The position numbers and the translations under genes were made by a program. A stretch of DNA of 64,000 nucleotides, taken from Escherichia coli (GTDB taxonomy: Bacteria > Pseudomonadota > Gammaproteobacteria > Enterobacterales > Enterobacteriaceae). Of this stretch, positions 38,628-38,733 are shown piece after piece. The notes under the pieces were generated by a model that was given only the letters and a program-made list of their open reading frames with translations, did no database searches and had not been told where the DNA came from. The stretch lies in the NCBI RefSeq assembly GCF_009931435.1, contig NZ_CP043414.1; one strand, 5' to 3'. Each line of letters begins with the position of its first letter. The stretch's first letter is position 1.

Positions 38628-38733
38628 TCACCCTGTGTGACGTCGATCCGGGCGTCACGCTCTCTCCTTTTTCAGTTTACCTTCCGCGGAGGGTAGGGGG
38701 AGCTTTTACCTGAAATACGCCACGGAGGCGGGT

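Follow-up and report, generated by a model that had tools for sequence, protein, structure and literature searches.

Conserved RNA hairpins between eutM and eutN of Escherichia coli probably end or protect the upstream message

Hairpins that act inside operons are known from several bacterial systems. In E. coli, an intercistronic REP/BIME between malE and malF forms a stem-loop 3' of the more highly expressed cistron. The intercistronic stem-loop of the Rhodobacter capsulatus puf operon is an mRNA decay terminator, thought to set stoichiometry through segmental stability. The rplL-rpoB attenuator is a partial intrinsic terminator located inside an operon. The eut operons of Firmicutes carry ANTAR-controlled terminators (EutV/EutW; reviewed in PMC5821096). 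ANTAR targets consist of two small hairpins with hexaloops of defined sequence and lie upstream of genes; to our knowledge, control of the enterobacterial eut operon lies with EutR, not with an ANTAR protein.

The spacer between eutM and eutN of E. coli, in which two hairpins (HP1 and HP2) follow the eutM stop codon, shares features with each of these systems. Like the REP/BIME, it presents a stable stem-loop 3' of the more expressed upstream cistron within an operon, but the Escherichia eut element lacks the REP signature CTTATCMGGCCTAC, is single-copy and has its own two-hairpin architecture. Like puf, it places a hairpin between genes for abundant structural subunits and less-needed downstream genes; the sequences are unrelated, and for the eut element segmental stability is a prediction. 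The rplL-rpoB attenuator is paralleled by GC-rich hairpins followed by U residues between genes of different output (UUUU after HP2, and UUUCUUU after HP1 in Buttiauxella), although the eut U-tracts are short or offset, the internal loop of HP2 is large, and Yokenella and the species with REPs at this position have no U-run. With the ANTAR terminators the likeness would lie in RNA hairpins that modulate read-through within a eut locus, as is proposed for this spacer, but the loops depart from the ANTAR motif: that of HP1 varies from ~5 to 30 nt, and HP2 ends in a tetraloop. The eutM-eutN element, previously unannotated here, would be an ordinary within-operon tuner with a mechanism of textbook type; only the participation of a specific trans-acting factor would take it beyond the ordinary.

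The spacer and its neighbours in the eut operon

The window, that is, the whole stretch of E. coli DNA that was analysed (64,000 nucleotides), contains the features listed below around the junction. Group A denotes 18 spacers from Escherichia, Citrobacter and K. spallanzanii.

36479-37282, + strand: eutT
37279-38295, + strand: eutD/pta
38334-38627, + strand: eutM, major hexameric BMC-H shell protein, 97 aa (ORF list; RefSeq E. coli loci)
38628-38733, + strand: eutM-eutN spacer, 106 nt
38637-38658, + strand: HP1, stem GTGACGTC/GGCGTCAC of 8 bp with the 6-nt loop GATCCG
38659-38703, + strand: HP2, bipartite hairpin that abuts HP1 (RNAfold; RNAalifold and pair counts)
38660-38672, + strand: CU-rich tract CTCTCTCCTTTTT, near-invariant in group A spacers
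38704-38717, + strand: TTTTACCTGAAATA, a U-run and then an AU-rich linker, invariant or nearly so in the 18 group A spacers
38718-38733, + strand: eutN translation initiation region, with a 4-bp hairpin CGCC/GGCG and ACGGA in its loop
38734-39021, + strand: eutN, pentameric vertex protein, 95 aa, ATG at 38734
39033-40436, + strand: eutE
from 40447, + strand: eutJ

The encoded EutM is 100% identical to the protein of the matching RefSeq-annotated E. coli loci, and its gene ends in a TAA at 38625-38627. A preliminary description of this DNA had singled out the spacer that follows as unusually long in a tightly packed operon. Both the length of 106 nt and the packing hold up, with eutE beginning 11 nt 3' of eutN and the remaining eut junctions overlapping or spanning at most 45 nt, but the spacer is only second in length, the eutG-eutH gap being longer at 216 nt. 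That gap (42461-42676) holds two tandem units of ~90-100 nt (42459-42548 and 42559-42648) that are 94% identical and contain two REP-like palindromes apiece, forming a BIME-type array. At the other end of eutM, the reading frame is open upstream as far as an ATG at 38292, which overlaps the eutD stop (window 38292-38333); RefSeq places the eutM start at 38334, downstream of AAGAGGAAAACACA. Further along the operon, eutA (43900-45303) is directly followed by eutB (45315-46676). The CPZ-55 prophage, which interrupts the eut operon in K-12 MG1655, is absent from the operon of this window. Across 38300-39040 and its flanks, four-fold-site identity to K-12-type E. coli is only 0.88, and the window matches most E. 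coli genomes at ~97% and strain MFDS1022581 at 99.1%. Judged by these comparisons, it seems to originate from a divergent Escherichia lineage.

HP1, whose full sequence gtgacgtcgatccgggcgtcac lies exactly at 38637-38658, is the hairpin that the preliminary description had placed at about 38639-38660. The hairpin is real, and the RNA structure prediction proposed there, carried out with RNAfold, recovers it together with a second hairpin, HP2, which had been overlooked. An extension of HP1 to 10 bp is possible (38635-38660). The hairpin folds with a free energy between -16.2 and -17.4 kcal/mol, and comparison with dinucleotide shuffles of these 26-30 nt gives z = -3.4 to -4.2. Its stem of 8-10 bp, with 6 G-C pairs, is GC-rich, as that of an intrinsic terminator would be. 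The pattern GTGACGYC-N4-34-GRCGTCAC, which describes HP1, has 1 match in the 64-kb window, with 0 expected. When a metagenome collection was scanned with this pattern, at least 120 matches with evenly spread gap lengths were returned, none of them beside eutM or eutN among the matches listed; in a collection of this very large size they are matches by chance, and they are uninformative. The pyrimidine run ending in TTTTT that had also been described is present as CTCTCTCCTTTTT (38660-38672), and its 5' part is the 5' arm of the basal stem of HP2. Because this U-run begins ~8 nt past the stem, HP1 has a poor terminator tail in Escherichia. The tail, UCUCUCCUUUUU, barely passes a simple terminator scan, and the scan itself shows no enrichment, finding 6 sites in 2.3 kb against a chance expectation of 3.2 +/- 1.8.

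HP2 is built from a basal stem of 8 bp rich in G-C and G-U pairs (38659-38666 with 38696-38703), an 11-nt internal loop (38667-38677) and an apical stem (38678-38684 with 38689-38695) capped by the tetraloop CGCG (38685-38688). Taken alone, it has z = -1.3 by energy. A TTTT (38704-38707) stands directly 3' of it, giving the tail UUUUACCU with four U residues. HP2 with its UUUU is more terminator-like than HP1, and neither hairpin is a canonical intrinsic terminator in Escherichia, the U-run of the one being offset and the other combining only four U with an 11-nt internal loop. The linker at 38704-38717 is mostly unpaired in the consensus fold, and its predicted role is that of a terminator tail or an RNase E target. 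In E. coli 90-1, an IS911-family element is inserted in the U-run just after HP2 (NZ_CP050047.1 4387010-4387488; ...GGGGGAGCTTT followed at the junction by GAAGTGG...), and this insertion, at locus positions about 275-290, parts eutM and the hairpins from eutN.

The eutN Shine-Dalgarno (SD) sequence GGAGG lies at 38724-38728, 5 nt ahead of the ATG and partly within the small hairpin at 38718-38730. CGGAGG is invariant in 22 of 22 aligned non-REP spacers, and the GGAGG(C) core is kept in nearly all spacers, including those that bear REPs. Some 20-25 nt upstream of the ATG, the motif (T)ACCTGAA is kept from Escherichia to Buttiauxella and Entomohabitans despite a different second hairpin. Several further features were considered here and set aside. 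A pseudoknot between 38670-38675 (UUUCAG) and 38710-38715 (CUGAAA) is unproven; it is AU-rich and varies by wobble changes only, and 18 of 18 group A spacers could form five of the six pairs (UUUCA/UGAAA), the sixth, G38675-C38710, occurring in the window only. A closing helix that would join the start of the spacer to the ribosome binding site of eutN, and so couple the genes by unmasking, is predicted for Escherichia and Citrobacter sp. R56 only; it is not conserved and brings no systematic change in SD accessibility. The only frame for a small ORF in the spacer (GTG at 38637; ~19 codons, counted by eye) lacks an obvious SD and is interrupted by loop indels whose lengths are not multiples of three. 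Scanning both strands for a sigma-70 promoter within the spacer returned none. An EutM-EutN read-through fusion, such as that annotated in S. Typhi CT18 and Ty2 as a single fused 690-bp eutMN ORF (PMC3548604), is ruled out here because the 106-nt spacer puts eutN out of frame. The spacer measures 111 nt in Salmonella enterica subsp. diarizonae, where eutM and eutN would share a frame, and 112 nt in subsp. arizonae.

Conservation of the structure and turnover of the junction

Among 5426 complete E. coli genomes, 5406 carry the spacer at an identity of 95% or more; it is single-copy and unannotated. The copy count, a median of one place per genome by blastn, applies to the whole 106-nt query, since copies of HP1 alone would escape at this E-value. 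In each comparison the spacer exceeds the four-fold sites of the flanking eutM, eutN and eutE in identity, with 0.97 versus 0.88 for K-12-type E. coli, 0.74-0.79 versus 0.53-0.56 for the C. freundii group and 0.79 versus 0.61 for K. spallanzanii. At the level of sequence, purifying selection on the spacer is supported.

An independent consensus fold of the 18 group A spacers with RNAalifold again yields HP1, HP2 and the small hairpin at the SD. With a consensus structure derived from the same sequences as the counts, 99.0% of cells pair in group A, and sliding the partners by 1-3 columns lowers this to 50-66%. Compensatory changes are seen at three pairs: the closing pair of HP2, which varies between G-C, C-G and U-G, and two apical pairs. 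When Buttiauxella, Entomohabitans and Yokenella are added, 90.5% pair versus 42-58% after sliding, and at 11 pairs both sides change; the compensatory changes, small in number, represent perhaps four to six independent lineages. The 8-bp core of HP1 is retained in 21 spacers from 5 genera, in which one pair is seen as U-G, C-G and U-A, and in Yokenella a G-C pair is replaced by A-U. Its loop ranges from ~5 to 30 nt in length, while the stem sequence is near-invariant across the five genera at distances where four-fold sites approach saturation (0.44-0.47 identity). Where E. coli genomes differ from one another, the variants lie in loops or are wobble-compatible.

Several U-G pairs are constant in all or most spacers, and the minus strand folds far more weakly than the plus strand (-34.9 versus -44.2 kcal/mol); for these reasons the structure is one of sense RNA, and not of duplex DNA or antisense RNA. 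Thermodynamics alone argue weakly for it, as the whole spacer is only modestly more stable than its shuffles (z = -1.4 to -2.0) and a free search in shuffled spacers commonly finds early hairpins of about -13 kcal/mol, and it is therefore conservation that carries the argument. An Rfam cmscan of 38000-39400 at E up to 10 returned no relevant family, only a chance-level match to AsdA at 39181-39248 (18.8 bits versus a gathering score of 52), and full-text searching found no literature description of the eutM-eutN spacer.

The same junction was followed into other genera through a EutN search with one genome per species, which gave 45 loci with eutM directly upstream. In 45 of 45 of these adjacent pairs a spacer of 52-211 nt separates the two genes, and the strongest early hairpin starts at a median of 8 nt past the eutM stop. 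The content of the spacer falls into several types. Escherichia combines HP1 with HP2, as do K. spallanzanii, the C. freundii complex and three further Citrobacter isolates. Buttiauxella and Entomohabitans carry an HP1-like hairpin whose tail is rich in pyrimidines or in U; in Buttiauxella the tail (TTTCTTTAAC / UUUCUUUAAC; UUUCUUU) comes directly after the stem and passes the terminator scan. Buttiauxella sp. A111 has TTTTACCTGA directly 3' of HP1. Yokenella has an HP1-like hairpin with neither U-run nor tail. REP palindromes occupy the junction in Salmonella, K. pneumoniae, K. oxytoca, K. michiganensis and K. grimontii, and also in C. koseri, C. amalonaticus, C. sedlakii, Pluralibacter and Pseudocitrobacter. 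The REP signature CTTATCMGGCCTAC was found at this junction in 9 other loci and is absent from the spacer of the window, from the spacers with HP1 and HP2 and from the HP1-like spacers. Finally, GC-rich hairpins lie at the junction in Pseudomonas and two Rhodocyclaceae. The content of the junction thus turns over while a stable hairpin near the stop codon persists. The occurrence of distinct hairpins at one position in different enterobacterial lineages suggests that a hairpin is selected for there, and termination cannot be the shared feature, because Yokenella and the REP-bearing spacers have no U-run.

Candidate functions of the eutM-eutN spacer

The conserved RNA hairpins probably end or protect the upstream message. 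More specifically, we give about an even chance to a module in which mRNA 3' ends are formed or protected: the hairpins would bar exonucleases and might also terminate transcription in a leaky fashion. As a decay barrier would be expected to do, a stable sense-strand stem-loop stands directly 3' of the more abundant cistron. REPs impede 3'-to-5' exonucleolytic decay and stabilise transcripts (PMC10100675), and it is this description of REPs as decay blocks, along with proteomics in which EutM is high, that favours such a module. On the eut mRNA, the module would consist of HP1, then the bipartite HP2, then UUUU and the AU-rich single-stranded linker. A fraction of the polymerases would stop at HP2 and its UUUU or, in Buttiauxella, at HP1 and its U-rich tail. 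Transcripts that read through could be cut in the downstream AU-rich linker, releasing an upstream eutS-to-eutM fragment, and the hairpins at the 3' end of this fragment would block 3'-to-5' exonucleases and so stabilise the eutS-to-eutM RNA. The predicted outcome is more eutM message than eutN-to-eutR message and a separation of eutM from eutN expression. eutN itself would initiate from its own conserved SD, since coupling to eutM is unlikely across an out-of-frame gap of 106 nt. Termination, cleavage, stabilisation and the effects on protein ratios are steps that we infer from the structure. The preliminary description had proposed a partial terminator or stabilising element; the conserved sense-strand structure, the REPs elsewhere and the high EutM are in keeping with that proposal; HP1, the hairpin named there, has a poor terminator tail, and HP2 with its UUUU is the more terminator-like unit.

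Published protein levels bear on the size of any such effect. In E. coli K-12 grown on ethanolamine and B12, relative abundances are EutQ 100, EutM 96, EutL 39 and EutB 37 (PMC11334477), and the same series gives EutE 27, EutC 24, EutD 10 and EutN 1 (PMC11334477), with EutM well above each Eut protein encoded downstream (PMC11334477). EutN is 100-fold lower than EutM, a difference that cannot lie mainly in the mRNA, since EutE, encoded 11 nt past eutN, stands at 27%. Nor do the levels fall steadily along the operon (EutD 10, EutM 96, EutN 1, EutE 27), and therefore translation efficiency dominates. The mRNA step at the spacer may be small. The earlier suggestion that the spacer sets high EutM output relative to the downstream genes is partly supported. 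With regard to transcript ends, a Term-seq table for E. coli in LB or M63, where the operon is assumed to be uninduced, contains no sense-strand eut 3' ends (PMC7815308). It does contain a low-scoring 3' end antisense to eutM (window 38559-38620, minus strand; MG1655 2572217, +; Adams et al. 2021, PMC7815308). The implied antisense RNA probably crosses the spacer and ends ~60 nt inside the 3' end of eutM; a search for an antisense promoter in 37500-39800 found none.

The low level of EutN invites another account, in which the spacer serves the translational control or insulation of eutN, uncoupling it from the heavily translated eutM and keeping EutN very low. This could be achieved by a partly occluded ribosome binding site, or by a repressor such as CsrA on GGA motifs, of which the ACGGA loop (38722-38726) and GCGGAGG in HP2 are candidates. 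With EutN at ~1% of EutM and EutE at 27%, the drop is largely translational or post-translational, the loop of the conserved 4-bp hairpin displays ACGGA and its stem takes in part of the SD, and post-stop nucleotides can pair with the GGGU before the ATG in Escherichia and Citrobacter sp. R56. However, this long-range pairing is not conserved (in most genera its pair probabilities add up to 0.0-0.7), the SD is predicted to be about equally accessible with or without the upstream spacer, and control of eutN leaves both the conservation of HP1 and HP2 and the replacement by REPs unexplained. The case for CsrA is one of motif resemblance only, and no literature link of CsrA to the site was found. 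We consider control of eutN an unlikely candidate. Lower still in our estimation is a Rho-dependent polarity site, in which the C-rich, G-poor untranslated tract at 38660-38684 would load Rho when genes further on are poorly translated, and so attenuate eutN-to-eutR transcription. The tract, CTCTCTCCTTTTTCAGTTTACCTTC, has 11 C and 1 G within an untranslated gap of 106 nt, pyrimidine tails are conserved after HP1 in both the HP1 plus HP2 and the HP1-like spacers, and BIME/REP elements have been reported to cause Rho-linked attenuation, which counts in favour of Rho. Yet the tract is short (~25 nt), HP2 is predicted to engage half of it in base pairs, and a strong eutN SD is nearby, and Rho loading at this position appears quite improbable.

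The turnover of the junction can also be read as a sign of little or no present function, the spacer being a relic of an operon boundary, of a terminator or of a decayed inserted palindrome that is tolerated in a junction needing a spacer. Because the content has been replaced wholesale several times (HP1 and HP2, HP1 only, REPs, GC-rich hairpins), no single spacer sequence is indispensable, and the z-scores are modest. A relic would not, however, be expected to stay well above the four-fold sites in identity and near-invariant in ~5400 E. coli genomes, to keep its pairing through compensatory and wobble changes, or to be replaced each time by another stable hairpin near the stop, and we attach only a small probability to it. 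The opposite idea, that the sequence itself matters, as a protein-binding hairpin or as a trans-acting small RNA processed from the spacer, draws on the near-invariant HP1 stem in five genera despite near-saturated four-fold sites, on the unexplained conservation of ACCUGAA and on an arrangement (5' hairpin, CU-rich stretch, 3' hairpin and U-run) that resembles small-RNA architecture. But there is no Rfam match, the tail has just four U, pairing is predicted for the CU-rich stretch, searches of the literature gave nothing, and the invariance of HP1 may reflect strong selection on a short GC-rich stem with few lineages sampled. This idea is very unlikely to be correct. The same faint prospect attaches to a shell stoichiometry device with sequence-specific recognition, in which a trans-acting protein or RNase would read the HP1 stem, the CU tract and ACCUGAA, or in which the spacer would be processed into a small regulatory RNA; if true, the ratio of facet to vertex protein would be actively regulated and not hard-wired. 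As for a palindrome acting at the level of DNA, either as the site of a dimeric regulator or as a cruciform, GTGACGTCAC is a perfect 10-bp palindrome, present in one copy in Citrobacter sp. R56 and two in Entomohabitans. The DNA-level reading is rejected as extremely improbable because the spacing of the arms varies from ~5 to 30 nt, because in the C. freundii group the arms lose their own palindromy (GTGACGCCAC) and stay complementary to each other, and because the G-U pairs are A-C mismatches on the other strand; in addition, the spacer has no promoter-like site.

The shells of microcompartments need far more hexamer (EutM) than pentamer (EutN). In the eutM-eutN junction there is a concrete element, open to mutation, through which the stoichiometry of the shell could be understood and engineered, and it is relevant to synthetic compartments and to cloned eutMN or eutSMNLK cassettes that carry the native spacer.
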